From positions 1 to 39,882 of IMG/VR virus record IMGVR_UViG_3300035698_014481: 39,882 nt of DNA. One strand, given 5' to 3'. Made by a program: the position numbers and the translations under genes. The notes beneath the pieces are model-generated. The model was not told the DNA's origin, ran no database searches, and saw nothing but the letters and a program-made list of their open reading frames with translations. This DNA comes from a virus. Positions 11,602-37,960 of the stretch are shown here, piece by piece (position 1 is the stretch's first letter; the number at the start of each line of letters is the position of its first letter).

Positions 11602-11611
11602 TGTTAACCCT

Positions 11612-11899: not shown

Positions 11900-11911
11900 T
11901 CTTAATTCCTC

Positions 11912-14461: not shown

Positions 14462-14475
14462 CTATATTCCTCCTG

Positions 14476-15237: not shown

Positions 15238-15238
15238 T

Positions 15239-18461: not shown

Positions 18462-18462
18462 T

Positions 18463-22558: not shown

Positions 22559-22559
22559 T

Positions 22560-23991: not shown

Positions 23992-24035
23992 GGCACTCGC
24001 CTCTTATTGAAATCACTTGATCTCAATAATTTGAT

Positions 24036-24884: not shown

Positions 24885-24891
24885 CGTTCAT

Positions 24892-25233: not shown

Positions 25234-25246
25234 TTTTATATCCTCG

Positions 25247-25705
25247 TTAGCTATTTTCGCGTCCATTACTCTCAATCCCATCCGGTAATTCGCCAATCAC
25301 CATCAAGTAACCTCGCCACGTTCCTTCTTTCTCGTGCATCTCGGTCAATCTCTTGTCTTCAATCGGTTTGACTTTCGTCATATCAATTGCCCGACAATTT
25401 AAACGTTTCATGAACCATGCAAATACTCTTCGCATAGCTCCAATTTTAGCACCTTTTCCATCCACACCATGCGCAATCAATCCGACTGCATCGGAACTAT
25501 CGCCGTGATGTAATGGCTCAACTTCTTGCAAATTTATGAGTTTTTGCTCGTGTGCTATCGTTGAAAGGAATTGATCCTTGACATCATCTTTCACGATAAT
25601 ATCAAGCATCTTCACTTCAACTACTTTCACTCCAGCGTTGGTACCTATTTCACCTTTGGCACCCTTTTTGAGTGGGTAATGTAACCGCTGAAGTTGGCCG
25701 ACCAT
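25247..25705 (-). CDS. Hypothetical protein
   Basis: Strong RBS GAAGGAGGG upstream of the ATG. No motif recognised. Confidence 0.6.
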   Translation of the reverse strand: MVGQLQRLHYPLKKGAKGEIGTNAGVKVVEVKMLDIIVKDDVKDQFLSTIAHEQKLINLQEVEPLHHGDSSDAVGLIAHGVDGKGAKIGAMRRVFAWFMKRLNCRAIDMTKVKPIEDKRLTEMHEKEGTWRGYLMVIGELPDGIESNGRENS

Positions 25706-25737
25706 ACGGTCGAACCCTCCTTCACGATTATGTGCTA

Positions 25738-25768
25738 AACAAAAAATATGGGTAATACTAAATCACCC
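25738..25768 (-). terminator. Possible terminator after the capsid gene cluster (weak hairpin plus T-run)
   Basis: On the minus strand GGGTGATTTAGTATTACCC is followed by ATATTTTTTGTTT. Lies in a 65-nt gap, one of only a few intergenic gaps of 50 nt or more in an otherwise tightly packed arm. Confidence 0.35.
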
Positions 25769-25770
25769 AA

Positions 25771-26058
25771 TTAAATACCCTTTACGAATAAAGCGTATTG
25801 ATGGTTTGTTGTACCACCAGACGCATCAAGCGTAACTGTAGTCGTACTCCAGGTGCCTGTTACACTATCACCAGTTGTGATATCGTATGCTTCAACACCA
25901 TATACTGTTGTCATTGTCTGCTCGCTTCCTAAAACAGTTGTATCTGTCAGGTCAATAGTATCTGCACTATCGGCGGTAGCAGGAGTCAGAATAAAAACTA
26001 CTTTGATTCCGGTGTTCGGTAAATGTTGTTTACTCGTACATCCAGTTATTGCTGCCAT
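25771..26058 (-). CDS. Small Thr-rich beta protein, possible head decoration/accessory protein
   Basis: Track ORF just downstream of the major capsid gene. Resembles its neighbour 26070..26336 in size and pattern. Confidence 0.45.
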   Translation of the reverse strand: MAAITGCTSKQHLPNTGIKVVFILTPATADSADTIDLTDTTVLGSEQTMTTVYGVEAYDITTGDSVTGTWSTTTVTLDASGGTTNHQYALFVKGI

Positions 26059-26069
26059 TTTTCTTTACC

Positions 26070-26336
26070 TCATCGTTGACACAAAACCAAACCTGTTACG
26101 GCGGTCGTGTCACTTCTTGTCATTGTAATCACATTCGTTGCGTATGTCATTGTTTCTAGCGTATCATCTGAATCAACCAGATTTGCTACGATGACTTTAC
26201 TTACGTTTGCGATAGTGATAGTGTCATTCTGAGCTGCTCGATCTGTTGATTCGAGATAGCCCAAGAATACACCACCATTAGTCTTTCCACCATTGGGTGA
26301 GACTTCTTTAACGGATGCATATACATTTGTTGCCAT
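26070..26336 (-). CDS. Small beta-rich protein, possible head decoration/accessory protein
   Basis: Track ORF immediately downstream of the major capsid gene. Confidence 0.45.
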   Translation of the reverse strand: MATNVYASVKEVSPNGGKTNGGVFLGYLESTDRAAQNDTITIANVSKVIVANLVDSDDTLETMTYATNVITMTRSDTTAVTGLVLCQR

Positions 26337-26350
26337 TTGAAATCACCTAA

Positions 26351-27502
26351 CTAAAGGATCTCTCCAACGAACGAATTGAATGCAGTGTTTCTGATGATCA
26401 AAGTTTCATACACCTTTAGCATGAATTTTCGACTATCATTCGTATGTGCAAGGTCTTCATATGTAAGATCTTGAAGTACGCGCATCTCTGTATTTCCTTG
26501 TAATTGAAGGAAGTATAGAGCTTTGCTACCACTAACGTTTGACATAAACATCGATGGTACAACTGGGATTGCTCCGACCATTGTATTCAACGTGATTGCT
26601 TGGAATCCCCAAGAAACCTGTGAAACACTCTGAAGGTAACCAATCTTAGCCGTTAATAACTTCATAAGATCTGTAAAGACTGCACTTGAACAGATACCAA
26701 CTTCTGGTCGTCCACCATCATCAAAAGCATACTGGACTACAGTATTAATATCGTCTAATGATAGAGCTGCCGAATTCTTGTCAAGCTTATTCGTTGTAGA
26801 TTGCAAAACAATAAATCCACTGAATTCTGATCCATCTGGATTTCCTACAACTCCTGACGTTGTTGCGTTTCCGTTAACAATTAGATTTTCTTCAAGTTCT
26901 CGAATCTCTCGAGTCTTTACAAGAACCTCTGTCTGCATAGCGTTAGGTGCTCCTTGATCATTAAATGGACCAACTGCACCAGATCCTGGCATCATTCCCA
27001 TCAAAACATATGAAGGTTGTGCTGCTTGTGAAGGACCTGTGATACGTCCTATCGAGTATAGAAACTTGATAGCCGTACTGTTTCTCGCGTATGTAGTGTT
27101 TGTTTCACTAAGTGCTGCATCTTCTGCTGCTGTGAACGCTCCACCTTTAGCGGTGATATTGTTAAAGTCTGCATACATTCCCATGTTAGTAACACGTGGT
27201 ATAATTTCAACAATAGGTGTATTCTTTCGGGTTTCGTCAACTATCTGTGGGTCTACAAAGATTGGAATCATTGCATATCCAGCAGTACCTGCTCCGCCTG
27301 ATGTTGTCGTGTGTGCTTTTATTCCGGTTTGGAAAGCACTGTTAATAGCCCCTCTCGAGTCTACTGTGTAAGTAGGTTCACTTGAAACTAAAGACTTCAT
27401 ATTCATTTGCTGATAACATGTTTTATTTTGCATGTTACCGAAACTCTGCGAATATGCTGCCTCAGGAACGAAGTTAGATCCTACTGATCCGGTTTGTGCC
27501 AT
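26351..27502 (-). CDS. Major capsid protein (HK97-fold type)
   Basis: 383 aa, directly downstream of the prohead protease-scaffold gene. Size and order are typical. No diagnostic motif checked by eye. Confidence 0.75.
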   Translation of the reverse strand: MAQTGSVGSNFVPEAAYSQSFGNMQNKTCYQQMNMKSLVSSEPTYTVDSRGAINSAFQTGIKAHTTTSGGAGTAGYAMIPIFVDPQIVDETRKNTPIVEIIPRVTNMGMYADFNNITAKGGAFTAAEDAALSETNTTYARNSTAIKFLYSIGRITGPSQAAQPSYVLMGMMPGSGAVGPFNDQGAPNAMQTEVLVKTREIRELEENLIVNGNATTSGVVGNPDGSEFSGFIVLQSTTNKLDKNSAALSLDDINTVVQYAFDDGGRPEVGICSSAVFTDLMKLLTAKIGYLQSVSQVSWGFQAITLNTMVGAIPVVPSMFMSNVSGSKALYFLQLQGNTEMRVLQDLTYEDLAHTNDSRKFMLKVYETLIIRNTAFNSFVGEIL

Positions 27503-27512
27503 TTGCTTTACC

Positions 27513-28586
27513 TCATTGAATTAGTCCCAGTGGAGTTTTTAGTTCTCCTCCGAGCTTTAATGTAGTTATTCTTTCTATATACCCTTTTATGATCGGTTCA
27601 TTCATCTGTGCTTTCAATTTAATTAATTCCTCTTCATTTGATTGAAGCTTAGATTTAATTGCTTGCAGAGGACCTGCAGCGACTTTGTCAACGTTAGCTT
27701 GCTGTAGTTCTCCTTCGATGACTGTCTTGTCAGCCTGAACAACTGCAAGTTTATCACGAAGATCCTTTGTTTCATTCTCTGATTTTTCAACACGAGCAGC
27801 AAGTTCTTTAATCTGTGTGTCTGTAGCAGACAGCTCTGGTGTTGGTACAACAGGAGCTGGTTCTGCAGGTGCAGGAACGACTGGTGCTACTGGTGCAACA
27901 GGAGCTGGTTCAGCTGGTGCTGGTGCTGGTGCTACTGGAGCGGGAATTGTTGGTTCTACTGGTACTGTATTTCCATTATTATTTTCTTCTGGCATTTTGG
28001 TATCCTCCATAGATTTAATATAAGATTTAAGTGCAGGTGCAAAGGTCGCATTTGGATTAACTGGGTTGCCAGTTAATGTGACATTCACGAGATTCCAAGC
28101 ATCGATGAATCGTTGCTTAACTCCATTAACAACCTTCTCTGCGAACTTAACCGCATATCCAGCTATACTGAAACTGTGCAAAAACCCGTCCTTGATACTG
28201 TTCCACACTTCTTTAAACCTAGGATTATTTGAATTGATCTCGACCTTTGCCCAAACTCCTCGCTCTTTGAGCTCAGCGTCGACAATCTTGCCGATAGGTA
28301 TGATTCCACCTTTTGGTGTATTAAGAAGATCTTGTGGCCCATTATCAGGATTAGCTGCTCCACCTGGTTTTTTAAACCATACTTCATGATCCATATCGAG
28401 TGTAATTTGTTTATTCTTGACTTGAACAAGAAGATCTCTCTGGCCAGTCATAGTGACTACCTCACCCATATCATCAGGATCAATGGTTGATATATAGCCT
28501 TCCACGTAATGTTTCTGGCCACCTTTTAGACCTACAGTTGACCACTGCAGTCCTCCCATTTGGTATGTAAATTGTTTCTGGTCCAT
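27513..28586 (-). CDS. Prohead protease (HK97/S78-like) fused to a Pro/Ala/Val linker and a coiled-coil scaffold-like tail
   Basis: EGYISTIDPDDMGEVV, DMDHEV (His), GFLHSFSIAGYA (Ser) fit the S78 pattern. Linker PVEPTIPAPVAPAPAPAEPAPVAPVAPVVPAPAEPAPVVP. C-terminal heptad-like region. Start moved to ATG 28586, 1 nt after the upstream stop. Confidence 0.7.
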   Translation of the reverse strand: MDQKQFTYQMGGLQWSTVGLKGGQKHYVEGYISTIDPDDMGEVVTMTGQRDLLVQVKNKQITLDMDHEVWFKKPGGAANPDNGPQDLLNTPKGGIIPIGKIVDAELKERGVWAKVEINSNNPRFKEVWNSIKDGFLHSFSIAGYAVKFAEKVVNGVKQRFIDAWNLVNVTLTGNPVNPNATFAPALKSYIKSMEDTKMPEENNNGNTVPVEPTIPAPVAPAPAPAEPAPVAPVAPVVPAPAEPAPVVPTPELSATDTQIKELAARVEKSENETKDLRDKLAVVQADKTVIEGELQQANVDKVAAGPLQAIKSKLQSNEEELIKLKAQMNEPIIKGYIERITTLKLGGELKTPLGLIQ

Positions 28587-28587
28587 T

Positions 28588-28947
28588 TTATTCGTCCGAT
28601 AAGTATACAAGAATACGCGCCACTCCTGCATTTCCACCTTGGGCAATGACAACCTTTATGGTTCCTGTCAAAAACATCTTGCATCCTGCGTCTGTAAATG
28701 CTGATGCATCTGCTACTTTAGATGGGATAGCTCGCACATAATATGAAGCATTAGCTTGTGCCTGATCTGTGATGGTTGTGATAGCTTCACTATATGAATC
28801 CTCACATGTGATAGTAATATCTGCTGTTGATGCTAATGATGTGTTGACGTTAACTACCTTCTCAAGAAAGCCTCTCGCTTGGACAGTACTTGTAAGTGTC
28901 AATGACCCGTCTGCTGCGGCTGTTCCTGTTAATTCGATGATTTGCAT
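28588..28947 (-). CDS. Hypothetical head-associated protein (119 aa from ATG 28947)
   Basis: GAGGT lies 6 nt before ATG 28947 (MQIIELTG...). Confidence 0.5.
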   Translation of the reverse strand: MQIIELTGTAAADGSLTLTSTVQARGFLEKVVNVNTSLASTADITITCEDSYSEAITTITDQAQANASYYVRAIPSKVADASAFTDAGCKMFLTGTIKVVIAQGGNAGVARILVYLSDE

Positions 28948-28949
28948 TT

Positions 28950-29567
28950 TTATACCTCGACCATCAGCCTTGTTCTGCAATACACATGAAAAGGAGGCTG
29001 ACTTTGATCAATAACCTTTCCTGCTACTAGGACTTTAAAATTCTTATCCATTGAAATCGCCTTGTCAGGTGATCCATATTTAGTATTCATCTTTGAGCAT
29101 ATAGGTGATGTTCTGCTATCCATATGAACTGATACCCATTTCTTTATATCGATACCAAGCTTTTGATTTGCTTCGTTTGCTGCGTCAAGTCGACCAGCGT
29201 TCTGAGCTCGATTAAATTCGGTTCGAGCAATCATCGCCGCTCTATTCTCACCAACCTTCATAACTTCCTTGACTCGTTGCTTAATTTGAGCAACTGACTC
29301 ATTGTTTAACAACGCGGCCATGAGAGTCTGTCTCATCTTGTCAACAAGATCGTCTGTCATGCCTTTAATATTGTCGAATGTGTATGTCTCAAAAAATTTA
29401 AGTTTCTCTGTATTGCCGATAAGATTTACATTAACAAGCTTTTCAACGTCATTCACTCCAATATCATAGCTTTGCTTTAATTCGTTATGTACAAGTTCTG
29501 GGTTGATCTTAATATCCATGATATTAGCAATCCTCTTGACCATATCCTCAACTGATCTACTGGACAT
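28950..29567 (-). CDS. Head morphogenesis protein, SPP1 gp7 / Mu F-like
   Basis: ARTEFNRAQNAGRL and the C-terminal PPFHVYCRTRL resemble the conserved Mu F family blocks. Lies directly after the portal gene. Confidence 0.65.
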   Translation of the reverse strand: MSSRSVEDMVKRIANIMDIKINPELVHNELKQSYDIGVNDVEKLVNVNLIGNTEKLKFFETYTFDNIKGMTDDLVDKMRQTLMAALLNNESVAQIKQRVKEVMKVGENRAAMIARTEFNRAQNAGRLDAANEANQKLGIDIKKWVSVHMDSRTSPICSKMNTKYGSPDKAISMDKNFKVLVAGKVIDQSQPPFHVYCRTRLMVEV

Positions 29568-31164
29568 TTTGCAAACTTCCCTCCTCTATTTGAGCGAAAG
29601 CCTTGTCAATTAGTTTTGCTTTATCACGAATCTGTTTAATAAGAGCACTTTCGAGCTCAGTTTTTAATTTTGATTTGATATTCTTCTTATTGTCGTCATC
29701 TTTCTCTTGCTTCGGATTATTATCTCCGAAACCATTAAATGACTGCTCACGATCCATTTCTTTCTGCTGATTCTCATCTTTCTGCTTGACTAGTTCCGCA
29801 ACATCGATACCCTCTTCTTCAGCAACCATCTCTGCTGTTTTGATTCCGATTTCTGTCTGGATCTTATAAAGCTCGTGTTTTTTAATTTCCTCGTCGAGAT
29901 CATAGTCATCCCATTTAAACATAAGTTTGGGCTCACCGAACTCAGGCATGAGTTCCATGTTGATACGTTCAGCAATAAGATTCAAGATAGGCCTCACTGC
30001 TTTCTTAGCATACCTCTTTGATTGTGTATCTGACACAGCTTTGTTACTGTCCTCAAAGAATCCCATGTCATCAGCACTCAATCCGAATGCCATCCATATG
30101 ATTTTTGTGAACCATTGCTGTTGTTCAAGAATCTGCATTTCACGAGCAGGTAACTGGAATGGAACGAATTCTGGTTTTAAAGAGGTGATTGGGACTTTGT
30201 AACCAATACGTCGCCAAAACCCAGTTACCGTGTCTTTCTCTCGTGTTTGTCCGTCCATACGTCTTCGCATCGCATCGATCTGTGGTTTGTTTGCGCCAAG
30301 AACAGAAATGATACCTTCTGGCATGTTGTTATTCATATAAAAATCAAGATTGTATTGTGCTCCATATACGAGCGTGAGTATAATATCAGCTAAGATGGCA
30401 ACTGGGCTTGTTCCATATATACTATCTGAGCGTGGGTTGTTCATAAAATAAACAACTTCTCTCTTTCCAAACGGTATAGGCATCGATGCAGTAACCCATC
30501 CATATTGAAAGTATGCAGCTTTGTTCTTTGCAAAGAAATCATAATACTTGATAACCATTGGATCGTTCTGAACACTCACATCTAAACCACGTACAGGCCA
30601 AACGATGTCATCTCTGTTGCCAATGTAGCCGTGAATATCAGGATTCTTTAAAAACGATGCACCATCTCTAGCAAAGATTTGGACCATTTCACCCATTCGG
30701 TTGAATACTTTGACCCATATCCCAGAATCATATGTGCATATATCGCGCACACATGCTTTGATTAGGTGAGAAAAACCCTCCTTGTTGCCGTTCGGATTTA
30801 TTAAAAATTCTGTAATGTCTTGTGTTTTCTTCTCGAGTTCGGGAGTCATAGTATCTTTTTTAGAGTCCTTTAATGTAATCTCCCATTTGTTTGTTGCTGC
30901 TTCTTCTGAAAGAGTTCTTATCACTGAGAATATATAACCGTTCTTAGCAAATGTATTCAACAAAGGAAGATTTTCCTCACGAGGATATCCGTAAGGAGGT
31001 TTATATAAAAACTTAGGAATATAAGATTTAAATATTCCACCCTCGATACCCACACGCTCGACAACGTCGCCCCCAGGCTCAGTGGGGGTAGAAGTCGTTG
31101 CAGAGTTAGTTTTCAAGGTAGGGGAAGAAAACATGTTGGAAAAAAAAGATTTAAAAGTAGGCAT
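29557..31164 (-). CDS. Portal protein
   Basis: 535 aa, upstream of the MuF-like/protease/capsid genes, with an acidic C-terminal tail. Size and order are typical. Confidence 0.75.
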   Translation of the reverse strand: MPTFKSFFSNMFSSPTLKTNSATTSTPTEPGGDVVERVGIEGGIFKSYIPKFLYKPPYGYPREENLPLLNTFAKNGYIFSVIRTLSEEAATNKWEITLKDSKKDTMTPELEKKTQDITEFLINPNGNKEGFSHLIKACVRDICTYDSGIWVKVFNRMGEMVQIFARDGASFLKNPDIHGYIGNRDDIVWPVRGLDVSVQNDPMVIKYYDFFAKNKAAYFQYGWVTASMPIPFGKREVVYFMNNPRSDSIYGTSPVAILADIILTLVYGAQYNLDFYMNNNMPEGIISVLGANKPQIDAMRRRMDGQTREKDTVTGFWRRIGYKVPITSLKPEFVPFQLPAREMQILEQQQWFTKIIWMAFGLSADDMGFFEDSNKAVSDTQSKRYAKKAVRPILNLIAERINMELMPEFGEPKLMFKWDDYDLDEEIKKHELYKIQTEIGIKTAEMVAEEEGIDVAELVKQKDENQQKEMDREQSFNGFGDNNPKQEKDDDNKKNIKSKLKTELESALIKQIRDKAKLIDKAFAQIEEGSLQNVQ

Positions 31165-31200
31165 ATTATATTATATATGCCTACACCTTTATATGTCTTA

Positions 31201-31683
31201 TTATAGATTGTCTATAAAGTCGATCTGTTTCTTCTGTTTATCCATAGCATCAAGAATCATCTCGCGATTCTTTTTAGCGTCGACATACATGTGGCAATCC
31301 TGGGAAAATTTATCCAGATGCTTAAGTTTCTTCATATACTTCCTTTTGTCTACTGTCTTGTTGATTGTCGCAAGGAGCTGAGCCATCTTGTCTACTTGAT
31401 CAATCTCTCCGATCCGTTGAATCACATCATCAGCCGCCTTGAGTCTATCTTCAAACATATCATACTGCTCTTGGAGATACACCCTTAACGTTGGAATAGA
31501 TTGCATGAAGATTCTATTCTCAACATGGTATGATGGCTGCATTCCTACAGTAAATTTGCCTGATTTAGTCGATATCTCAACTTTTTTTTGAGGATACTCA
31601 ATATCTGCAACAATGTCGCCGTTATCCAATACTTTCAACATTTCTTCATCTTTTTTGTTTTCATTCATTTTTAAAACTCTCAA
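31201..31683 (-). CDS. Hypothetical protein
   Basis: Track ORF, helical Lys/Asp/Glu-rich. Confidence 0.5.
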   Translation of the reverse strand: MRVLKMNENKKDEEMLKVLDNGDIVADIEYPQKKVEISTKSGKFTVGMQPSYHVENRIFMQSIPTLRVYLQEQYDMFEDRLKAADDVIQRIGEIDQVDKMAQLLATINKTVDKRKYMKKLKHLDKFSQDCHMYVDAKKNREMILDAMDKQKKQIDFIDNL

Positions 31684-32098
31684 TTTTTTTGATTTGATCT
31701 GGAGTCAAATCAATAAACACAGCATTACTTTCCTGTAAATTTACAAAATCCGATCTAACAATGGAGAGTGCATTTCCATCAATATCACAAGTGAGTGGAT
31801 GTTTGTTTTTACTATCTATTTTATCATATATAAGATTAAATTCTTGTTCTGCAATTGGATAAGGATACCCTCGTGCATCGACAGCCAAATATCCATCCTC
31901 ACAATATAATGCCCCTTCAGATGTTATAATTGTGAAACCTCCATCTATCCTAGTTGCACGTGTATTTACTTTCTTACAGTATGTACACCACTTAGCATCT
32001 TTTAATTTCTCTTTGAAATCAACAATACTAAATGTTGGCATTATTGTTGAAGATATACTCCCATCTTCTCGTGTTACAATATTTTGTTTTTCATTCAT
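31661..32098 (-). CDS. Hypothetical protein
   Basis: Track ORF with ATGA overlap to the upstream stop. Confidence 0.5.
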   Translation of the reverse strand: MNEKQNIVTREDGSISSTIMPTFSIVDFKEKLKDAKWCTYCKKVNTRATRIDGGFTIITSEGALYCEDGYLAVDARGYPYPIAEQEFNLIYDKIDSKNKHPLTCDIDGNALSIVRSDFVNLQESNAVFIDLTPDQIKKIESFKNE

Positions 32099-32364
32099 TG
32101 TTTAATCACCCTTCGGTTTTTCACATCTATTTCAATCTCACGCTGACCGTCCACATTCCATGGACAGTCTTTGTAATTGATATTAACATTCTCTCTCATA
32201 GTACATTTATTGATCGGACCTATCTTGCGCCCGAGTCTGGCATTGTACACACGGCACAACGTCTTACCACTCTTCAGGACCACCAAATGTTTACACTTCT
32301 TATATGGAACACCATTCGAATCTCTAAGGAAACAGCATTGGCCACATCTTGAGCAGTTCAACAT
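32095..32364 (-). CDS. YkgJ/CxxCxxCC-family Cys-cluster protein
   Basis: MLNCSRCGQCCF followed by KCKHLVVLKSGKTLCRVYNAR fits the CxxCxxCC zinc/iron-chelating domain pattern. The track ORF opens at GTG 32382. Confidence 0.55.
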   Translation of the reverse strand: MLNCSRCGQCCFLRDSNGVPYKKCKHLVVLKSGKTLCRVYNARLGRKIGPINKCTMRENVNINYKDCPWNVDGQREIEIDVKNRRVIKQ

Positions 32365-32606
32365 ACGTCCAACATTCTCCACTCTCTACAATTAATGACA
32401 CGGAATTTTCCTTTTTTCTTCTCATATCCTTCATCACTATCATTTGGGACATTGTGCTCATAGTCGGACAAATGGATGATTTGTTGATCCCAATTGTAAA
32501 AGACCAGGACACCAAAAACAATACTCCCATCTTTCATTGGTACTTCAACACGCTCACCCAAGAAGTCTATGATTCTCGGCAGATCAGTTGGTTTAATTCT
32601 TTCCAT
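32358..32606 (-). CDS. Sm-like (LSm-fold) protein candidate
   Basis: IIDFLGERVEVPMKDGSIVFGVLVFYNWDQQIIHLSDYE follows the Sm1 pattern (h-x-x-h-G-x-x-V-x-V-x-h-K-x-G...G-x-L...h-h-h-L-x-D-x-E). The Sm2-like part, KFRVINCREWRML, is weak. Confidence 0.4.
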   Translation of the reverse strand: MERIKPTDLPRIIDFLGERVEVPMKDGSIVFGVLVFYNWDQQIIHLSDYEHNVPNDSDEGYEKKKGKFRVINCREWRMLDVC

Positions 32607-32621
32607 TTTTCTTCACCCACC

Positions 32622-32783
32622 CTACCAATATGGCTTGGGATAATTGTCCTTGTAATGACCCTTAATGCTATTAACTCTTTCCCTTTCAATCGCTTCAGCA
32701 CACTCAATACACATGTTCGACTTTCTTGTATTCGATCGATTGTATCGACTGAACCTTTTACCGCATCTCTTACACCATGACAT
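32622..32783 (-). CDS. Small zinc-ribbon protein (53 aa), below the track cut-off
   Basis: Own translation MSWCKRCGKRFSRYNRSNTRKSNMCIECAEAIERERVNSIKGHYKDNYPKPYW. GGTGG lies 4 nt before the ATG. Replaces the implausible 91-aa track ORF 32567..32842. Confidence 0.5.
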   Translation of the reverse strand: MSWCKRCGKRFSRYNRSNTRKSNMCIECAEAIERERVNSIKGHYKDNYPKPYW

Positions 32784-32792
32784 TCTACCACC

Positions 32793-34391
32793 CTAACAAT
32801 CCATAATTCCTCCACCACTTGTCTCCAAAGACAATCGCTCAAACGCTAATGAAAGAGCAATAGGAATATCACCATGAGGTCCAATCTCTACAAGCTTGCC
32901 ATCCTCAAGGGCATAGGTACAACATTCATCCATAATCATATGGGCAATCTGTTTGTCATGTTCCGTTTTGTACGGTATTCGAAACTTGTACCCTTCACCT
33001 AATCTGATGGATTCGTGATTGTTTTCAAACATAGTGCCTAATCTCTTGATAATTGCAACTTTACCAACCGTATGACGTTTATCTTTAAATTCATAATCTG
33101 AAGCAGATTGTTCAGGTCTCTTTCCGGCACTGTCTGCAGCACCCATCCAATACAATGTGTATGGGAAGTTATACTTCTTGATGTCATCACGCATGGATCT
33201 GATGCTGTTCTCTTCAAGAGCATTATCATCAAACTTATGCACACCTGTTAACATCTCCAGGTAATCAAACTGTTGAGTGATAGTCAGGCCCTTCTTGATC
33301 ATACAGGTAAGTAGATCGACGCATTCGGTATTCGCCCCGATCCCAAGAAACGCTGACTTATCAGCTGTAGCCCTGTCGCTAAATGCAAAATCTCCTCCAT
33401 TGATACGAATGTCATACTTCACATCGTGGTTGTCACCGAAACTAAATGTTTCATCGAAACAACTCTTTACCCATTCTCTCTTGATGAGTGCAGTCGAATC
33501 GTCAACAGGCTCATTCATGTACTCTGATTGGAAGGATGGAGTTCCTATCTCTTTACGTATATCATCAAGTCGAGACTTGTCATATAAATCTGAAAATATG
33601 ATTGTGTTCTCATCAATCTGTGTAGTTCCTTCTATAAACCGACAAGCCTTATACACCTTGCCATTACGTACGCGTAGCTTCTGTGCAAGCAGGCAATCAT
33701 GATGGATCAATGTCCCGACCATCTTAGTACCCTGGTTCTCAGCTGCAAGAGCTGGAATGATTTGTTTATTCATCTTGGCCATGTCACGAATCCTTAGCAC
33801 GGGATTGGTCACACGCTGGTCATCATCAATATCATCAAAGATCATGAGATCTGGTCTGAAGTTACCATATTTGAGCCCACGAATGTTCTTCTCAAATGAT
33901 AAAGCTCTTATACGTTGGCCATCTACATCGAAACAATCCTCACGATCTTTTCCATCTTCATCCTTAACTTCTGAGAACTTTGATTCTCCATAGATAAACT
34001 TAAACATCTTGTTAGTCTTAACCTCACGTCGTATAGGTTCTAAAAATTCAACAGACTTCTCGTGATTCTGTGATGTATAGACTAAGTATCTGAACCGGCG
34101 ATATGCCTTCATCCATAACACAAACCCCTGACCAATTAAGGTAGACTTACCATGACCACGTGGTGCAGCGACAACTGCATGCCCTGGCTTCTCAAACGCA
34201 CGAAAGATTTCCCAGTGCATTGCTGTGAATGGTTTGGTGAACGCGTGTGGAAGAATGAACCTACAGAACGTCTCAAAGTTTTCTGAAAAAGAAAAGAGAT
34301 ACTTCAGATACATGATGATCTGTCTTCTTGTCTTACCGCTTTTAACGATCGCGATACACTCGTCAACCGTCACTATTAATTCTTGATCCAT
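32793..34391 (-). CDS. terL: Terminase large subunit
   Basis: Walker A AAPRGHGKST and Walker B-like LMIFDDIDD. 532 aa, upstream of the portal module. Confidence 0.9.
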   Translation of the reverse strand: MDQELIVTVDECIAIVKSGKTRRQIIMYLKYLFSFSENFETFCRFILPHAFTKPFTAMHWEIFRAFEKPGHAVVAAPRGHGKSTLIGQGFVLWMKAYRRFRYLVYTSQNHEKSVEFLEPIRREVKTNKMFKFIYGESKFSEVKDEDGKDREDCFDVDGQRIRALSFEKNIRGLKYGNFRPDLMIFDDIDDDQRVTNPVLRIRDMAKMNKQIIPALAAENQGTKMVGTLIHHDCLLAQKLRVRNGKVYKACRFIEGTTQIDENTIIFSDLYDKSRLDDIRKEIGTPSFQSEYMNEPVDDSTALIKREWVKSCFDETFSFGDNHDVKYDIRINGGDFAFSDRATADKSAFLGIGANTECVDLLTCMIKKGLTITQQFDYLEMLTGVHKFDDNALEENSIRSMRDDIKKYNFPYTLYWMGAADSAGKRPEQSASDYEFKDKRHTVGKVAIIKRLGTMFENNHESIRLGEGYKFRIPYKTEHDKQIAHMIMDECCTYALEDGKLVEIGPHGDIPIALSLAFERLSLETSGGGIMDC

Positions 34392-34405
34392 TTGTGAGTA
34401 TAAAA

Positions 34406-34437
34406 CACCAATAACCCGACATGTCGGGTTATTGGTG
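34406..34437. repeat. Perfect 32-bp palindrome (hairpin with up to 14-16 bp stem) 14 nt upstream of the terL ATG
   Basis: CACCAATAACCCGACATGTCGGGTTATTGGTG equals its own reverse complement. On the minus strand it is followed by TTTTATACTCACAAATG. Confidence 0.9.
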
Positions 34438-34555
34438 CCCAGTACATTAGCAAAGCGTCATTCGGGATGTAAGCTAAAATCAGTTGGTATGGTATTAAAT
34501 GCGCGTAGCCCGAATTCATTCATGCAAATCTCATTGTTTTTACCCAACAAAACGA

Positions 34556-34628
34556 TGGCAAGAGATGGATTCGAACCACCAAACCTCCAATCGATACATG
34601 GTGCTGTCCCGACTCAGCTTATCTCACC
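34556..34628 (-). tRNA. tRNA-like element with degenerate anticodon arm (anticodon undetermined, nominally AUC)
   Basis: Minus strand GGTGAGA-TAA-GCTG-AGTCGGGA-CAGC-...-GGTGG-TTCGAAT-CCATC-TCTTGCC-A. The T arm and D stem are canonical, and the acceptor has 5 WC + 2 GU pairs. Only 3 WC pairs can be drawn for the anticodon stem. Confidence 0.5.
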
Positions 34629-34640
34629 GCTTAATTCCTT

Positions 34641-34745
34641 TCATTTATGTATCACAGTTCTAGCAACTTCAATGGCTTGAATTCGCTTCTCAAGCTTTAC
34701 CATCCTTTTAAGCAGTTCTTCATATGTGATTTTAATCATCATCAT
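34641..34745 (-). CDS. Possible 34-aa helical mini-ORF
   Basis: Own translation MMMIKITYEELLKRMVKLEKRIQAIEVARTVIHK. ATGA overlap with the upstream stop. Speculative. Confidence 0.25.
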   Translation of the reverse strand: MMMIKITYEELLKRMVKLEKRIQAIEVARTVIHK

Positions 34746-35173
34746 CCCCTCTGTTCAGTTAATAGGTCAAGTAGATCCACCACTTGATCTTCAGGTAATT
34801 GAAGATCTATATTGATATTGGTGCTCTCAACCTTTAGTTTGTCACCAAAATGCATTTTATGCCATTTAGCAGTAGAATTGATAACAGTCTCAAAATTCTT
34901 AAGATCTGGGTTCTCGATTGCTATTGTACGCATCCGATCAATCATGATTGCCACATCCAACGCCGACATTGATGGATCTATCATTAAATTATATAATCTT
35001 TGCGCATCAGCGTCATTCATGTTGCCACGACGCCGTAGGGCTGCAATGCGAGCCGCTAGACGCTGCTTCGGCGTCACTACCTTACCTCCTATGCGTCCGG
35101 CTGCCGCTGCGGCCTCGCGGTCTTTAAAGTACATTGGTGGATGTCTACCATTACTCCCTAATCCGTCGCCCAT
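34742..35173 (-). CDS. Candidate terminase small subunit (positional)
   Basis: 143 aa, the closest sizeable protein-coding gene upstream of terL. Basic Ala/Arg-rich N-terminus REAAAAAGRIGGKVVTPKQRLAARIAALRRRG. No family motif confirmed. Confidence 0.4.
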   Translation of the reverse strand: MGDGLGSNGRHPPMYFKDREAAAAAGRIGGKVVTPKQRLAARIAALRRRGNMNDADAQRLYNLMIDPSMSALDVAIMIDRMRTIAIENPDLKNFETVINSTAKWHKMHFGDKLKVESTNINIDLQLPEDQVVDLLDLLTEQRG

Positions 35174-35188
35174 ATTTTCATGTTCTCA

Positions 35189-35347
35189 CTATGTAACTTT
35201 GAACTTGCCTTGTCTGTGTTGCTCTATCGCCTCTCGTACAAACTCTGAGAAGCCTATTCGTAGCTTCTTCAAATACGCCCGATCGGTTAATTTGACGGAT
35301 GCCGTGACATTTGTTGTTTTAGGTCCGCCTTCATACTTTCGTGCCAT
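35189..35347 (-). CDS. Ribbon-helix-helix (CopG/Arc-like) DNA-binding protein (52 aa), missing from the ORF track
   Basis: Own translation MARKYEGGPKTTNVTASVKLTDRAYLKKLRIGFSEFVREAIEQHRQGKFKVT, with a beta strand (VTASVKL) then two helices. First gene downstream of promoter/operator S4. Confidence 0.5.
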   Translation of the reverse strand: MARKYEGGPKTTNVTASVKLTDRAYLKKLRIGFSEFVREAIEQHRQGKFKVT

Positions 35348-35552: not shown

Positions 35553-35570
35553 AATAGAAACATTTATATA
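35553..35570 (+). promoter_or_regulatory. Archaeal-type BRE/TATA promoter (site S3, no palindrome), driving the plus-strand arm
   Basis: AATAGAAACATTTATATA is identical to the 18-mer at 1634-1651. The AbrB-like gene ATG lies 50 nt downstream, behind GGTGGG. Confidence 0.55.
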
Positions 35571-35619: not shown

Positions 35620-35808
35620 ATGAAAATAACAAAAACATTATTGAAGTTTGGAGGGAGTTTAGGCTTGATTCTGCCTAAGCTTTTCTGGAATCACTTGGAG
35701 TTGCAAGAACAATCGAACGTTTCGATCGAAGATTGCGAAGACGAAAATGGTATACCATTTATAAAGGTGATGCTCTGTGAAGATTCCGAAACAACTTCAA
35801 AAGAATAG
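35620..35808 (+). CDS. AbrB/SpoVT (MazE-type looped-hinge-helix) DNA-binding protein
   Basis: LKFGGSLGLILPKLFWNHLELQEQSNVSIE fits the SpoVT-AbrB pattern (G-x-S-h-x-h-x-h-P-K). ATG 35620 lies behind GGTGGG; the track start is GTG 35611. Confidence 0.6.
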   Translation: MKITKTLLKFGGSLGLILPKLFWNHLELQEQSNVSIEDCEDENGIPFIKVMLCEDSETTSKE

Positions 35809-37960
35809 GTTTATACGGACAGTAGGTAAGTTCCCGATAGACAAAAATTGGTCTACTACGAACCATTTTCCTGCAGAGGAAATCAAGGGGTCTTACGGCG
35901 TAGTTTGTGGGTACAACAACCTTATAGTAGTTGATTGCGATAATGAATACTCAGATCGCGTGCTGCACACAATAGAAACATTTAAAAACACCTTCCAAGT
36001 CATTACTGCAGGGAAACAACTAACACACTTTTATTTTTATACAGATATCCCTAAAACGATGCGTGTTCAGACACCAAAGGCTAAGTTAGATGTGCAAGGT
36101 AAGGGTGCAATGGTCGTCGGTCCAGGAACTGAGATTGATGACAGTTTATATATGATTTTAAATGATTCCGAGATCCAATTTATTACACAGGAGAATCTTC
36201 TGAAGATCTTTAGTGAGTTATTTGATTATTCACCACAATCAAGCAAACCTAAGAAAAATCAGGATAAAGTAAACGAAGACTATGATGCGGTGTGTAAGAT
36301 CATCAAGCGTGAAGTTCCAATTGAAGATGTTTTAAAAGAGAATGGAATTGATACATCGAAGCATGGTCAATTGAGTGATTGTCCATTTCATAAGAGCGAA
36401 AGTCATACATGCTTTGCCAGGTATGTTGACGATGATGAAACAATATGGAAATGCTTTCATTGTGGTAAAACAGGCAATGTTATTCAGCTCTATCAACAGA
36501 TTAAGAAGATGAGTTTCACTGAGGCAAAGGAAGAGTTAGCAGATCGAGTTAGTATTTCAAAATCACTCCAAAAACAAGTAATGGAGTTTATAAGTCAGAA
36601 GAGAAAGGAAGAAGCAACAGAGTGTATAGTTGTAGAGTTTTTACGACGATATAAGACCCTTACGCTCAGAGATGACAACAAGCCTGAGATGTGGATTTAT
36701 TCGGGTGGTGTCTACGTACCAAATGGTAGATCTTACATTAAGGAGTTTGTTGAGTCTGTCTTGGGTCCATTCTATACATCACACTATTCTGGGAAGGTTA
36801 TCTCTAAGATTGAGGCGAAGACGTTTTGTGATGAGGAGGAGTTGTTCACAAACGAAAACCCTGAATTAATTCCAGTACATAATGGTGTGTTGAACGTCAT
36901 GACTGGGACGTTGTTCCCAATATCAGATCAATATCGATTTTTTAATAAGTTACCTGTACGTTATGATCGGGATAAGGAATGCCCAAATATCAAAAAATTC
37001 TTCGAGTCGCTTCTTGATGATCCAAAGGATATCAAGACTATTCAGGAAATGTTTGGGTATGTCTTATATCGAAAGTATACATTCAAGAAGGCATTCATGA
37101 TGACAGGGAACGGGAACAATGGAAAAAGTCAGGTGTTCAATCTGTTAAGTAAATTGATAGGAGTAAAGAATCAATGTGAAATCCCATTGCAAAAGTTGGA
37201 CACTGAGAAGTTCCTCTTAGTTAATCTTCATATGAAGATGGTGAACATTGGTGGAGATATTGGTCAAGCTAGATTAGAAGAGACTCAAACATTTAAGCAG
37301 ATAACAGGACGTGATGTCGTGACAGCTGACAGGAAATTTCTGTCTACGATCTCATTTAGATCATATGCTAAGCAAATCTTTGCAGCTAATCAGATCCCGC
37401 AGACTAATGACATGTCTGACGCTTTCTTTGAGCGGTGGATTATTATCGATTTTAAGAAAACATTCAAGAATCGATTAGAGTATGAACACTTATCTGATGC
37501 TGAGAAGATCATAAATGATATCCACTTAGCAGATCCGAATATCTTAGATAAGATCGTAACTGCTGATGAATTGAGTGGTCTCTTGAACTGGTCACTCCTT
37601 GGTCTTGCTAGATTGATGAAGAATAAGGAGTTCACAACTACAACAACGGTAGATTTGGTAAGGCAGATGTGGATACGTAAATCATCATCGTTTAATGCAT
37701 TCCTTGATGATTGTATTACTCGTGTATGGAATCCAGAGGAAATGTTACTCCATGAAGATCTAATGGATAGATACCATCGCTATTGTTTCGAGCATAAAGT
37801 TAAGAGTGAGATCTCAAAGCTGACTAAAGATAAGATGAATGCATTTGGTTCAGAAAAGGTGCGGCCAATGAAAGGAGGTCAGCGTGACTGGTATTGGACT
37901 AACATCGCGTGGAAAGATGACAAAACAATTGAGAATGTGGCTAAATATGCGTCAAAATAG
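35777..37960 (+). CDS. Replicase: AEP prim-pol domain + CHC2 zinc finger + D5_N/SF3 (P4-type) helicase
   Basis: Prim-pol LIVVDCDNE (DxD), LTHFYFY (His motif), DVQGKGAMVVGPGT. Zinc finger CPFHKSESHTCF...WKCFHCGKTGNVIQL. Walker A MMTGNGNNGKSQ. GTG start overlaps the AbrB gene end. Confidence 0.85.
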   Translation: MKIPKQLQKNRFIRTVGKFPIDKNWSTTNHFPAEEIKGSYGVVCGYNNLIVVDCDNEYSDRVLHTIETFKNTFQVITAGKQLTHFYFYTDIPKTMRVQTPKAKLDVQGKGAMVVGPGTEIDDSLYMILNDSEIQFITQENLLKIFSELFDYSPQSSKPKKNQDKVNEDYDAVCKIIKREVPIEDVLKENGIDTSKHGQLSDCPFHKSESHTCFARYVDDDETIWKCFHCGKTGNVIQLYQQIKKMSFTEAKEELADRVSISKSLQKQVMEFISQKRKEEATECIVVEFLRRYKTLTLRDDNKPEMWIYSGGVYVPNGRSYIKEFVESVLGPFYTSHYSGKVISKIEAKTFCDEEELFTNENPELIPVHNGVLNVMTGTLFPISDQYRFFNKLPVRYDRDKECPNIKKFFESLLDDPKDIKTIQEMFGYVLYRKYTFKKAFMMTGNGNNGKSQVFNLLSKLIGVKNQCEIPLQKLDTEKFLLVNLHMKMVNIGGDIGQARLEETQTFKQITGRDVVTADRKFLSTISFRSYAKQIFAANQIPQTNDMSDAFFERWIIIDFKKTFKNRLEYEHLSDAEKIINDIHLADPNILDKIVTADELSGLLNWSLLGLARLMKNKEFTTTTTVDLVRQMWIRKSSSFNAFLDDCITRVWNPEEMLLHEDLMDRYHRYCFEHKVKSEISKLTKDKMNAFGSEKVRPMKGGQRDWYWTNIAWKDDKTIENVAKYASK

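Follow-up and report, generated by a model that had tools for sequence, protein, structure and literature searches.

Four exact copies of an 18-nt element lie in the 39,882-nt stretch of viral DNA analysed here (the window), one of them at 35553 to 35570. The question that they raise is whether they are promoters and, if so, which kind of host reads them. A preliminary description took the element for an archaeal BRE/TATA promoter and, cautiously, the virus for an archaeal one. Considered as a whole, together with the operator and start-site proposals that go with it, the reading of the 18-mer as an archaeal core promoter is the best explanation of our results, and we put its probability at about 0.8.

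The two ends of the window carry a 127-bp terminal direct repeat, which indicates a circular assembly of ~39.8 kb. The genes are of the tailed-virus (Caudoviricetes) type and include a portal gene (PF04860), an MCP family gene (PF17236) and TerL; Mu F-like, HK97 gp10-like and tail-tube genes are found in syntenic relatives. TerL is 20 to 28% identical to INPHARED phages, which gives no clue to the host, and as a single query in IMG/VR it matched one locus. Neither ARAGORN nor a default Rfam run found RNA genes in the window. A sensitive Rfam run found one tRNA-like gene, and folding of that region gave no significant structure (z = -0.19).

Copies of the 18-mer and their placement

A scan of the window for exact matches to AATAGAAASMTTTATATA found four, at 1634 to 1651, 35553 to 35570 and 37956 to 37973 on the plus strand and at 35380 to 35397 on the minus strand, and 100 dinucleotide-preserving shuffles contained no match (0 expected against 4 observed). 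These are the four copies described before, of which the three on the plus strand were placed correctly and the inverted one was one base off (35398-35381 instead of 35397-35380). It had also been noted that the copies at 1634 and 35553 are identical, and they are. The idea that the 18-mer is restricted to four sites has to be given up, because a fifth copy with two mismatches (AATAGAAAGGTTTATAAA) lies at 35418 to 35435 on the minus strand, in tandem with the 35380 copy and 38 bp upstream of it. Identity among the copies is 16 to 18 of 18 positions. Non-coding DNA makes up only 3.5% of the window (1,405 of 39,755 unique bases), and it contains all five intergenic copies, each of which stands at the head of a gene block and has the same direction as that block. 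The intergenic and co-directional placement in the preliminary description is therefore correct. The octamer TTTATATA occurs six more times in the window, always inside coding sequence and without the GAAA element. A near-copy with two mismatches (AATAGAAACATTTAAAAA) lies at 35971 to 35988 on the plus strand within the primase ORF; it has TTTAAAAA in place of the TATA box and codes for a conserved peptide, and with this degenerate TATA in a coding context it is probably not a promoter.

The copy at 1634 (P-1634, AATAGAAACATTTATATA) begins 2 nt past the helicase stop codon and precedes a block at 1686 to 7752 with small ORFs and genes for a DUF6948 protein, a methyltransferase, YopX-PolB, a resolvase-like protein and an ATP ligase. 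P-35380 (AATAGAAAGATTTATATA, an exact match) faces a minus-strand block that runs from 35347 to 7806 and contains an RHH-like gene, a small-terminase-like gene, TerL and the portal, MCP, tail and lysis genes. P-35553, the site of the original observation, heads a plus-strand block that starts with an AbrB/MazE-like gene followed by the primase-helicase gene (35777 to 37960, plus strand; Prim-Pol, CHC2 zinc-ribbon, D5_N and DUF5906). On the far side of the latter lies P-37956 (AATAGAAACCTTTATATA), which, as had been claimed for the replicase stop codon, contains the TAG of the primase ORF. Its block extends from 38044 across the circle junction to 1632 and comprises ORFs of 117 and 212 aa and a PD-(D/E)XK-SF2 helicase gene.

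The TATA box is TTTATATA in the four exact copies and TTTATAAA in the fifth, and fits TTTAWATA or TWTATATA, the consensus sequences used for the match (PMC2699501, PMC11065993). Upstream of it, G(-6) A A A(-3) S M is present as a BRE in all five copies. In M. jannaschii, TWTATATA is located at -30 to -23 and the BRE within 9 nt upstream (PMC2699501; PMC5512572), and the TFB sites of greatest strength carry G at -6 and A at -3 (PMC11065993). The 8-nt TATA box is that of the methanogen consensus, the BRE is purine-rich with G-6 and A-3, comparable to the strong BRE of the T6 type in SSV1, and the position upstream of co-directional operons is also that of archaeal core promoters. Unlike the canonical BRE of 6 to 7 nt, the conservation here reaches further upstream, to the AATA before GAAA.

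We propose that the host TFB would bind the 10-nt BRE-containing stretch AATAGAAASM, with its G at -6 and A at -3, and that the host TBP would bind the adjoining consensus box A/TATA TTTATATA. In this way the five copies, four exact and one weaker in tandem, may bring the RNA polymerase of the host to the gene blocks that they head, in a virus that seems to lack an RNA polymerase gene. By analogy with mapped methanogen promoters, transcription is predicted to start ~23 nt past the last TATA base, near 1674, 35357 (minus strand), 35593 and 37996. The predicted start at 35357 is 10 nt ahead of the ATG at 35347, and an SD-like GGTGG precedes the ATG at 35620 behind P-35553. Genes behind the motif in the window are not leaderless: their ATGs lie 32 to 70 nt past the TATA box, mostly with a GGTG-type SD sequence, and for this reason the argument from leaderless spacing comes from other contigs. 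A promoter specific for a virus-encoded RNAP or sigma factor was rejected, as Pfam scans of about 45 of the 59 window ORFs found no RNAP, sigma factor or TFB gene.

Conservation in relatives and occurrence in other contigs

Syntenic copies are present in relatives whose primases are ~35 to 40% identical. Among the 8-mers within 600 nt upstream of the primase, TTTATATA ranks first and occurs at 9 of 16 loci (the window and 15 related loci) against 1 of 16 in the coding control; AATAGAAA occurs there at 6 of 16 against 0. The pattern ATAGAAAnnTTTAWAWA is found 180 to 490 nt upstream of the primase in L143, L144, L146, L150 and L153, and L169, with 48% GC, has the variant AAAAAGTTTATATA upstream of its primase. 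A BRE/TATA element lies directly past the primase stop codon in L142, L144/L145 and L147; in L139 (syntenic, GC 43%) it lies directly past the helicase stop codon, again with a 9-nt spacer, and a TTAATAA repeat is present. At the 144 TTTAWATA sites in the relatives, G-6 and A-3 occur together 24 times, against 8.3 expected. Anchored on the TATA box, the relatives show no downstream position with more than 0.1 bit, and the flank signal is weak when TTTAWATA alone is the anchor because chance sites dilute it. The exact motif was not found in the MCP relatives L122, L123, L124 and L126; L122 and L123 instead have the intergenic repeat TAGATTAAWTATWTAAA, with a hairpin behind it.

The same 18-mer also occurs in other viral and cellular contigs. 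An ORF starts within 150 nt downstream of 91 of the 137 sites in IMG/VR, against 25 in the reverse control, and the distance from the TATA box to the ATG peaks at 21 to 24 nt (17 sites against 1 in the control). For 121 metagenome sites the corresponding numbers are 90 against 40 for a downstream ORF start and 25 against 1 at 20 to 25 nt. An ATG at the expected archaeal start site, 20 to 25 nt away, suggests leaderless mRNAs, and a start codon ~23 nt past the TATA box equals the mapped TATA-to-TSS spacing of archaeal core promoters. On a cellular archaeal contig (L269), which also has archaeal LonB, CDC48-like and RFC-like genes, the 18-mer is located upstream of the TFB gene. A Woesearchaeota chromosome fragment with thermosome, Sec61beta and NAC genes has AGAAAtcTTTATAAA and AATAGAAAGC-CTTAAAAA 23 to 25 nt ahead of start codons, and the primase-bearing element integrated in this chromosome has a promoter nearly identical to that of L139. 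In AT-rich DNA the motif turns up by chance or in different settings as well, and part of the metagenome matches sit before bacterial or phage-type genes (GGDEF, AntA/ANT). An 89-kb NCBI contig with a PolB homologue (L138) looks viral and holds no host information.

Matches of this last kind, before GGDEF or AntA/ANT genes, would suit a bacterial sigma-70-type promoter in a phage of Firmicutes or CPR bacteria, with TTTATATA as a spacer conserved by chance. Hexamers with 4/6 and 4/6 agreement can be drawn at all four copies (TAGAAA as -35 and, after 17 nt, TACTAT, AACTAT or GATTAT as -10), bacterial leaderless spacing would give a similar distance, and YopX, MazE/AbrB-like and holin-like genes are frequent in Firmicutes phages. 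In addition, 3 of the 10 MAG contigs on which related capsid genes occur are bacterial. However, none of the copies was picked out by a search for sigma-70-like sites, which are not enriched in the window (counts of 63 and 59, with 72 and 62 expected, respectively), and the supposed spacer is invariant across relatives whereas the supposed -10 is not conserved (at most 0.1 bit downstream). Such a promoter would also hardly be expected upstream of TFB on an archaeal chromosome fragment, or equally spaced, as BRE/TATA, before the thermosome, Sec61beta and NAC-neighbouring genes of Woesearchaeota. TerL is less than 28% identical to any INPHARED phage, and a peptidoglycan hydrolase was not found in the window. 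We therefore regard a bacterial promoter as very improbable. The archaeal BRE/TATA reading is supported by G-6 and A-3 next to TTTATATA, by the placement at block heads without sigma-70 sites, by the syntenic copies in relatives, by the leaderless spacing elsewhere and by the copy upstream of a cellular archaeal TFB gene.

A putative operator and its candidate binders

Three of the four exact copies (1634, 35380 on the minus strand and 37956) are part of 43-nt modules composed of the BRE/TATA element, a variable 9-nt spacer and a perfect 15-bp palindrome, CTATTAAnTTAATAG. The palindrome is separated from the TATA box by 9 nt and, relative to the predicted start, would extend from about -13 to +2. 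It is located at 1661 to 1675 (CTATTAATTTAATAG) for P-1634, at 35356 to 35370 for P-35380, the promoter that drives the RHH-like gene, and at 37983 to 37997 (CTATTAAGTTAATAG) for P-37956; P-35553 and the weaker tandem copy are without it. All three palindromes are exact and no further exact copy occurs elsewhere in the window; with up to 2 mismatches allowed there are 4 sites, where 0.27 would be expected. In the modules the 9-nt spacer varies between two conserved blocks, and within the dyad only the central base varies. This suggests selection on two separate sites and argues against recent duplication.

Another explanation of the repeats would be that they stem from a recent duplication or serve in replication, packaging or recombination (as iterons or pac-like sites), given the high identity of the copies (16 to 18 of 18), the two copies that flank the primase gene and the presence of other small repeats in the divergent region. 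Against it stand not only the two conserved blocks around a variable spacer but also the orientation of the copies, which is strictly that of the downstream genes, the syntenic intergenic equivalents in relatives with 35 to 40% protein identity, and the directional, fixed start-codon spacing in hundreds of unrelated contigs, cellular ones included. We give this explanation hardly any credence, and iterons or packaging sites were rejected by the directionality and the occurrence upstream of cellular genes.

For the archaeal promoters proposed here, we infer that the palindrome is a putative operator for a virus-encoded dimeric repressor; alternatively, it could be a conserved initiator or 5'-UTR element. 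An operator palindrome and a switch with RHH-like and AbrB-like proteins would explain why the repeats are longer than a core promoter. A repressor on the palindrome would stop polymerase recruitment or promoter opening and leave TBP/TFB in place. The result may be a programme with two classes, in which the primase promoter is unregulated and the promoters of the structural block and of the remaining replication module are repressible. In L144, AAGTTATAnnACTTATATAAC is present at the RHH promoter and at the post-primase promoter and not at the primase promoter, and virus-specific repeats analogous to the palindrome are found in L144, L142, L139 and L143. Judged from these sequences, the relatives appear to keep the operator logic with different operator sequences.

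The divergent promoters lie between a small RHH-like gene and, on the opposite side, an AbrB/MazE-like gene with the primase, and this order is found again in at least 8 relatives. The RHH-like (ribbon-helix-helix) gene is a 52-aa ORF at 35189 to 35347 on the minus strand, the first behind the operator-bearing P-35380. Among its positional orthologues in relatives, RHH_1 was matched by 1 of 11 members (E 1e-3) and CcdA by 2 of 11, which are weak signals, and the orthologue profile gave weak matches to NikR (E 0.04), CcdA (E 0.16) and CopG (E 0.7-0.9). The window protein alone had no significant match in Pfam, PHROGs and PDB sequence searches, and its single-sequence AlphaFold (AF2) model is poor, with a pLDDT of 69 and a single helix only. 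Based on the orthologues, it is probably a ribbon-helix-helix DNA-binding protein, and as such most likely the prime candidate for the repressor that binds the palindrome. Binding at its own promoter would result in autoregulation.

The second candidate regulator is the AbrB/MazE/SpoVT-like protein of 62 aa (35620 to 35808, plus strand; 65 aa from a GTG at 35611), encoded by the first gene of the primase operon. Four of its six positional orthologues match PF04014 (best E 7e-6), and the orthologue profile matches MazE/AbrB structures at E 0.013-0.03. The window protein alone stayed below threshold in the Pfam, PHROGs and PDB sequence searches, and its single-sequence AF2 model is also poor (pLDDT 63). 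Made from the operator-free primase promoter, this protein may be the alternative binder of the palindrome.

Similar arrangements have been described for viruses of other archaea. The SIRV2 early/anti-defence promoters and the SSV T6 promoters have repeated 'consensus regulatory sequences' with strong BRE/TATA cores, and their flanks, which are virus-specific and include some inverted repeats, were proposed as sites for a virus-encoded repressor (PMC11065993). Our virus resembles them in that nearly identical strong BRE/TATA cores are repeated within one genome. It differs in that the promoters precede long replication and structural operons and not single small early genes, in that the conserved flanking dyad covers the predicted TSS and not the BRE, and in being a tailed virus of a different, uncultivated lineage. 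The RHH protein F55 of SSV1 binds repeats that overlap the TSS and the BRE, and the AbrB-like C68 of pSSVx binds a divergent promoter region (PMC5569661). As with F55 and SvtR of SIRV1, there is a small virus-encoded RHH protein here, putative and weakly supported, and putative repeat operators lie in or near several viral promoters, its own included, with an overlap of the predicted TSS as for F55. Those repressors regulate themselves, which is only proposed here by analogy. There is no detectable sequence similarity to those systems, and the operators are of different kinds: a putative 7-1-7 palindrome here, tandem repeats of ATAGATAG for F55 and an imperfect inverted repeat for SvtR. Like C68, the 62-aa protein is small, AbrB-like and encoded beside a divergent promoter region that it may regulate, and its orthologue profile matches the C68 structure (3o27) at E 0.34; the promoter of its gene is without the palindrome.

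The host and the virus group

The archaeal host had been a cautious call, and it is now stronger, although it is still an inference. Related capsid genes are found on 10 MAG contigs, seven of them archaeal and three bacterial, the evidence being the binning of whole-virus-sized contigs. The archaeal matches are to Woesearchaeota (three), Nanoarchaeota, Parvarchaeota and an unclassified 'archaeon', so that 5 or 6 of the 7 are DPANN, and to Methanosarcinales (L135). The only named primase homologue is in the element integrated in a Woesearchaeota chromosome. Together these results suggest that the host is probably an archaeon, of the Woesearchaeota-like DPANN.

It is also conceivable, if rather unlikely, that the promoters are archaeal and the host is a methanogen or another euryarchaeon. 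The box A with alternating TA, TTTATATA, is the classical methanogen TATA box, and this pattern is seemingly confined to methanogens (PMC2699501). A related capsid gene is on the contig binned with Methanosarcinales, GGTGA-type SD sequences are common in the window, and the lysis gene encodes a cysteine peptidase. Pseudomurein endoisopeptidases of methanogen viruses are cysteine peptidases too. Against a methanogen stand the DPANN share of the archaeal MAG matches and the primase homologue, whose Woesearchaeota chromosome has genes with the same BRE/TATA pattern and whose element has a promoter that nearly matches that of L139. The contig names point the same way, since many of the contigs with the motif derive from groundwater fractions of 0.1-0.2 um.

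A published groundwater virome includes two complete DPANN viral genomes of 41 kb, and the accessible part of that report contains no promoter or switch analysis (PMC11310336). By the description given in that part, our virus is similar in its ~40-kb genome, its LamG/concanavalin-like tail genes (PF13385 here) and the binning of its relatives with Woesearchaeota and Nanoarchaeota MAGs. We found no experimentally characterized DPANN promoters in the literature, and almost nothing is known of virus gene regulation in DPANN hosts.

The element type is well known and the virus group that carries it is little known. Archaea and their viruses commonly have promoters of this shape, and in itself the element is therefore no surprise. 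Capsid homologues of the virus family number more than 1,000, and none is close to any cultured phage. Our results provide evidence, at the level of sequence, that this family of metagenomic tailed viruses of ~35 to 42 kb infects archaea, probably DPANN. They also define transcription units and a proposed switch, with three operator-bearing promoters, one or two operator-free ones and two small putative DNA-binding proteins. Across hundreds of contigs, viral and cellular, the 18-mer keeps a fixed distance of ~23 nt to the start codon, and for this reason it could be a host-domain marker for uncultivated viruses. More tentatively, and with the odds somewhat against it, AATAGAAAnnTTTATATA may be a lineage-wide consensus strong promoter of Woesearchaeota/Nanoarchaeota-like DPANN, common to their chromosomes and to a large undescribed virus assemblage that ranges from ~40-kb tailed viruses to a 196-kb element. 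In that case, uncultivated viruses could be assigned to DPANN hosts from sequence alone, by the motif and its distance of ~23 nt to the ATG, and the order of RHH gene, operator promoters, AbrB gene and primase would be the first recognizable genetic switch of DPANN viruses. The 196-kb element has a GC content of 20% and contains arrays of the same promoter.

Placement of the repeated element and layout of the genome

The preliminary description had reported four copies of an 18-nt element. The pattern AATAGAAASMTTTATATA has exactly four matches in the window, at 1634-1651(+), 35380-35397(-), 35553-35570(+) and 37956-37973(+), and none in 100 dinucleotide-preserving shuffles. The inverted copy is present as described, but its coordinates had been one base off and are corrected here. 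The count of four holds for exact matches, but there is also a fifth, tandem copy with two mismatches (AATAGAAAGGTTTATAAA, 35418-35435(-)), which shares the intergenic region of the 35380 copy and lies 38 bp upstream of it. When up to three mismatches are allowed, the window has 8 matches to the 18-mer versus 0.38 expected. A near-copy inside the primase ORF (AATAGAAACATTTAAAAA, 35971-35988(+)) has a degenerate TATA box and is probably incidental. According to the gene map, non-coding DNA makes up only 1405 bases (3.5%) of the window, and all five copies lie in it, as expected for the proposed intergenic placement at the heads of gene blocks. They stand at the starts of the plus arm (35553) and the minus arm (35380 and its tandem 35418), and behind the primase (37956) and helicase (1634) genes. 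The primase stop codon indeed lies within the 37956 copy, and the 1634 copy begins 2 nt past the helicase stop. A genome-wide scan found six further TTTATATA octamers, all in coding sequence and lacking GAAA upstream.

The end of the window repeats its start (127-bp direct repeat, 1-127 and 39756-39882; 39,755 unique bases), which makes it a circular assembly. The helicase ORF is therefore 39285..(wrap)..1632 (700 aa) and not 16..1632. The genes lie in two arms, which diverge from 35348-35610. The plus arm (35611..(wrap)..7752) encodes an AbrB-like protein (62/65 aa, 35620..35808), a Prim-Pol/zinc-ribbon/D5_N/DUF5906 primase-helicase (35777..37960), the 700-aa helicase with SF2 helicase domains (Pfam), DUF6948, a methyltransferase, a YopX-PolB fusion, a Holliday-junction-resolvase-like protein (phrog_843) and an ATP-dependent ligase. 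The minus arm (35347..7806) encodes a 52-aa protein (35189..35347), a small-terminase-like protein, TerL, portal, a Mu-F-like protein, an SU10-type capsid protein, tail genes with LamG domains, a holin-like protein and a papain-like peptidase. A Pfam scan that covered approximately 45 of the 59 ORFs found no gene for an RNA polymerase, a sigma factor, TFB/TBP or an integrase.

A peptidoglycan hydrolase was not found in the window, in agreement with the preliminary description. The lysis candidate is the papain-like cysteine peptidase (8432-9217(-); PF00112, E 9e-8; phrog_16701, E 2e-18), which adjoins the holin-like ORF (9205-9468(-); phrog_689, E 0.003) in a probable lysis cassette at 8432-9468(-). 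A protease lysin would suit a murein-free host. At the equivalent place, L139, a related JGI contig, has a weak transglutaminase-core-like gene. A tRNA-like gene (34556-34628(-)) lies in the 350 nt that separate TerL from the small-terminase-like gene; it scores 34.2 bits to Rfam RF00005 (gathering score 29) with sensitive filters only and was missed by ARAGORN and a default Rfam run. The anticodon arm departs from the canonical form, with a 3-bp stem and a 9-nt loop, and CCA is not encoded; the equivalent gap of L126, another relative, has a similar acceptor/T-arm stub (about 1130-1190). A hexanucleotide tandem repeat, TGGCGA/TGGCTC (about 11 copies, 2932-3001), fills the gap 5' of the methyltransferase gene, and an 849-aa tail-fibre-like ORF (11912-14461(-)) has long tandem repeats at 12450-14134 (85-88% matches; periods 198, 228 and 489 nt), which in the protein are repeated units of about 66 aa. 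The YopX domain is fused N-terminally to PolB. In some relatives the PolB homologues are 1010-1120 aa long and the match is split by a large insertion (L139 10001-13363; proteins P0121, P0223, P0225 and P0229); these genes probably carry inteins, as P0223, P0225 and P0229 match LAGLIDADG or intein Pfam families.

A probable archaeal promoter with putative operators

The octamer TTTATATA is the box A proposed for stable-RNA genes of methanogens, and mapped promoters of M. jannaschii have TWTATATA at -30 to -23, preceded by the BRE within the nine nucleotides before it (PMC2699501; PMC5512572). Counted from the TATA box, TFB sites of the greatest strength carry G at -6 and A at -3 (PMC11065993), and all five copies read G(-6)AAA(-3)SM-TATA. 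Based on the M. jannaschii geometry, transcription is predicted to start near 1674, 35357(-), 35593 and 37996. The window genes behind these promoters have predicted leaders of 10-50 nt, mostly with GGTG-type SD sequences, so any argument from leaderless mRNAs is borrowed from other contigs. A bacterial promoter can also be drawn at the copies, as TAGAAA-17 nt-TACTAT/AACTAT/GATTAT, but a sigma-70 scan flags none of them, sigma-70-like sites are not enriched across the genome (63 versus 72 expected; 59 versus 62 expected), and the part conserved across relatives is the would-be spacer with the TATA box, not the -10 hexamer. The interpretation as an archaeal BRE/TATA promoter is supported, and we extend it with putative repressor operators. 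The element itself is of an ordinary kind, in a virus lineage that is poorly known.

In the 1634, 35380(-) and 37956 copies, aligned in their own orientation, the repeat extends beyond 18 nt. Downstream of the TATA box there are nine variable bases (TTGGTTGTA, CTGGTACAA, TTAATTATA), followed by the perfect palindrome CTATTAA-n-TTAATAG, which occurs exactly three times in the window at a constant position relative to the TATA box (with up to two mismatches, 4 sites versus 0.27 expected) and is absent from the 35553 and 35418 copies. Because a variable spacer parts two conserved blocks and only the central base of the dyad varies, these features point to selection on two separate binding sites and not to recent duplication. 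The palindrome would cover about -13 to +2 of the predicted start, a stretch of DNA that the polymerase has to bind and open. Between the divergent promoters (35436-35552) there are further small repeats, namely a direct repeat (CATTTGTCT, 35443 and 35452) and two inverted pairs (GCCCTATA at 35479 with TATAGGGC at 35510; TCTAGATT at 35458 with AATCTAGA at 35531), which may be additional regulator sites or an origin.

Conservation in relatives and candidate repressors

Metagenomic homologues of the capsid protein number more than 1000 (best 77% identity); many are on contigs of 34-42 kb, and none is close to a sequenced phage. For the replication arm, the best syntenic relative is L139 (35,172 bp, GC 43%), with identities of 52% for the helicase, 53-64% for PolB, 58% for the ligase and 64% for a 212-aa ORF; a PD-(D/E)XK nuclease domain is also present in its helicase orthologue. 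L139 has GACAAGnTTTATATAtnAGnATAACnTAATAAGTTAATAA at two sites, one of them immediately behind the helicase stop, where the window also has its copy, with an exact TATA box, the same 9-nt spacer and a TTAATAA-G-TTAATAA repeat at the position of the palindrome. For the primase we compared the window with 15 loci (14 from IMG/VR and the JGI metagenome contig L142; 27-40% identity). In a motif-blind k-mer count of the 600 nt upstream, TTTATATA ranked first (9/16 versus 1/16 in the coding control) and AATAGAAA was found in 6/16 versus 0. Five loci have ATAGAAAnnTTTAWAWA 180-490 nt upstream of the primase (L143, with the identical 18-mer, L144, L146, L150 and L153), and L169 (48% GC) has the variant AAAAAGTTTATATA there. 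A divergently oriented motif is present in L147, L148, L150 and L152, and a BRE/TATA follows the primase stop codon in L142, L144/L145 and L147. Two capsid relatives (L122 and L123, 68% identity) lack the 18-mer; in its place they seem to have another conserved intergenic module, in which TAGATTAAWTATWTAAA immediately follows stop codons and is succeeded by a hairpin and a TTCTTATTCTT tract, 75-150 nt ahead of the next gene (L122 136-261, 6780-6858, 12839-12995; L123 623-752, 6568-6631, 13155-13258).

In the relatives, the first minus-strand gene encodes a 40-52-aa protein with an RHH-like pattern, and an AbrB/MazE-like gene directly precedes the primase. PF04014 was matched by 4/6 members of the AbrB-like set (best E 7e-6), and the profile of this set matched structures of MazE/AbrB (E 0.013-0.03) and of C68 of an archaeal plasmid-virus (3o27, E 0.34). 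Signals for the RHH-like set were weaker (RHH_1 in 1/11 members, CcdA in 2/11; profile E 0.04-0.9 to NikR, CcdA and CopG). Taken singly, the window's own two small proteins stayed below threshold, and their single-sequence AlphaFold models were poor. In the L144 promoter of the RHH gene, AAGTTATAnnACTTATATAAC stands between the TATA box and a leaderless ATG; it recurs at the post-primase promoter and is absent from the primase promoter. The palindrome in the window has the same distribution. Judged from sequence, the regulatory logic appears to be conserved among relatives and the operator sequence not, a pattern that would fit a virus-specific repressor binding the putative operators. The simplest binder would be an autoregulated RHH protein. 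There are precedents for small RHH and AbrB-like regulators at viral promoters: the RHH protein F55 of SSV1 binds repeats that overlap TSS and BRE at several promoters, its own among them, and a region of divergent promoters is bound by the AbrB-like C68 of pSSVx (PMC5569661). SIRV2 and SSV are also known to have strong BRE/TATA cores that are repeated and carry virus-specific flanks (PMC11065993).

The element outside the virus family, and the host

Among the matches listed for the 18-mer (at least 137 sites in IMG/VR and at least 121 in metagenomes), the 150 nt past the element hold the start of an ORF of 40 aa or longer at 91 or more forward sites versus at least 25 in the reverse control (IMG/VR) and at 90 or more versus at least 40 (metagenomes). 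The TATA-to-ATG distance peaks, among these same matches, at 21-24 nt in IMG/VR (17 forward versus 1 reverse) and at 20-25 nt in metagenomes (25 versus 1), so that the start codon falls where archaeal transcription is expected to begin, the geometry of leaderless mRNAs. True relatives among these contigs are L066 (TerL 47%, portal 61% identity) and L132 (MCP 50%, MAG 'archaeon GLR112'), both with an ATG 22-24 nt past the TATA box. The metagenome match L269 is a cellular archaeal contig (CDC48-like, RFC-like, rhomboid and archaeal LonB genes) with AATAGAAAAATTTATATA 45 nt before a TFB gene (TFIIB repeats, E 3e-41), and another match precedes a TrmB regulator. In AT-rich DNA the 18-mer is not exclusive, as genes of bacterial or phage type (GGDEF, AntA/ANT) lie behind some of the matches.

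Among the primase homologues only P0266 is named (37% identity over the D5 part, 70-kb contig); it has the record title 'MAG: phage/plasmid primase [Candidatus Woesearchaeota archaeon]' and lies within an integrase-bearing element flanked by archaeal cellular genes (thermosome, Sec61beta, NAC). Cellular genes on its contig have matching elements 23-25 nt before their ATGs (TAGAAATC-TTTATAAA; AATAGAAAGC-CTTAAAAA; AAAAGC-TTTATAAG), and the promoter GACAGGTTTATATATGAGT in the integrated Woesearchaeota element nearly matches that of L139. When the capsid alignment was used as a query against species-representative genomes, 10 contigs matched, seven of them archaeal (three Ca. Woesearchaeota and one each of Nanoarchaeota, Parvarchaeota, 'archaeon' and Methanosarcinales) and three from bacterial MAGs (Izemoplasmatales, WOR-3, Bacteroidia); since the long contigs are virus-sized (about 35 kb), these matches are binning evidence and not integration. 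The capsid scan and the BRE/TATA pattern on Woesearchaeota cellular genes strengthen the case for the archaeal host proposed in the preliminary description, to which we give a probability of about 0.9. Within the archaea we lean towards a DPANN, Woesearchaeota-like host. The main alternative is a methanogen, because the TATA box of the window copies is of the methanogen type. With a DPANN host, the size and the LamG genes of the virus are compatible with those of groundwater DPANN viruses, for which two complete 41-kb genomes and LamG genes are reported (PMC11310336).

The integrase-bearing element on the Woesearchaeota chromosome fragment L141 (NCBI JBDRML010000045.1, Ca. Woesearchaeota MAG) is about 13 kb long (7638-20454) and lies, with a D5-type primase, resolvase, HNH, MazE-like and PD-(D/E)XK genes, inserted between thermosome-side genes on one flank and Sec61beta/NAC on the other; its promoters resemble those of the virus family. 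Finally, the first 11,687 bases of L046 (IMGVR_UViG_3300028048_000047, 1-11687), a very AT-rich jumbo viral contig (196 kb, GC 20%), are an array of identical promoter-plus-hairpin units: 16 plus-strand BRE/TATA copies every 0.5-1.2 kb, 14 of them the full AATAGAAAC[AC]TTTATATA, with one more full copy on the minus strand and nearly all followed by a conserved ATTAATAATTGTGAGT...ACTTACAA hairpin.
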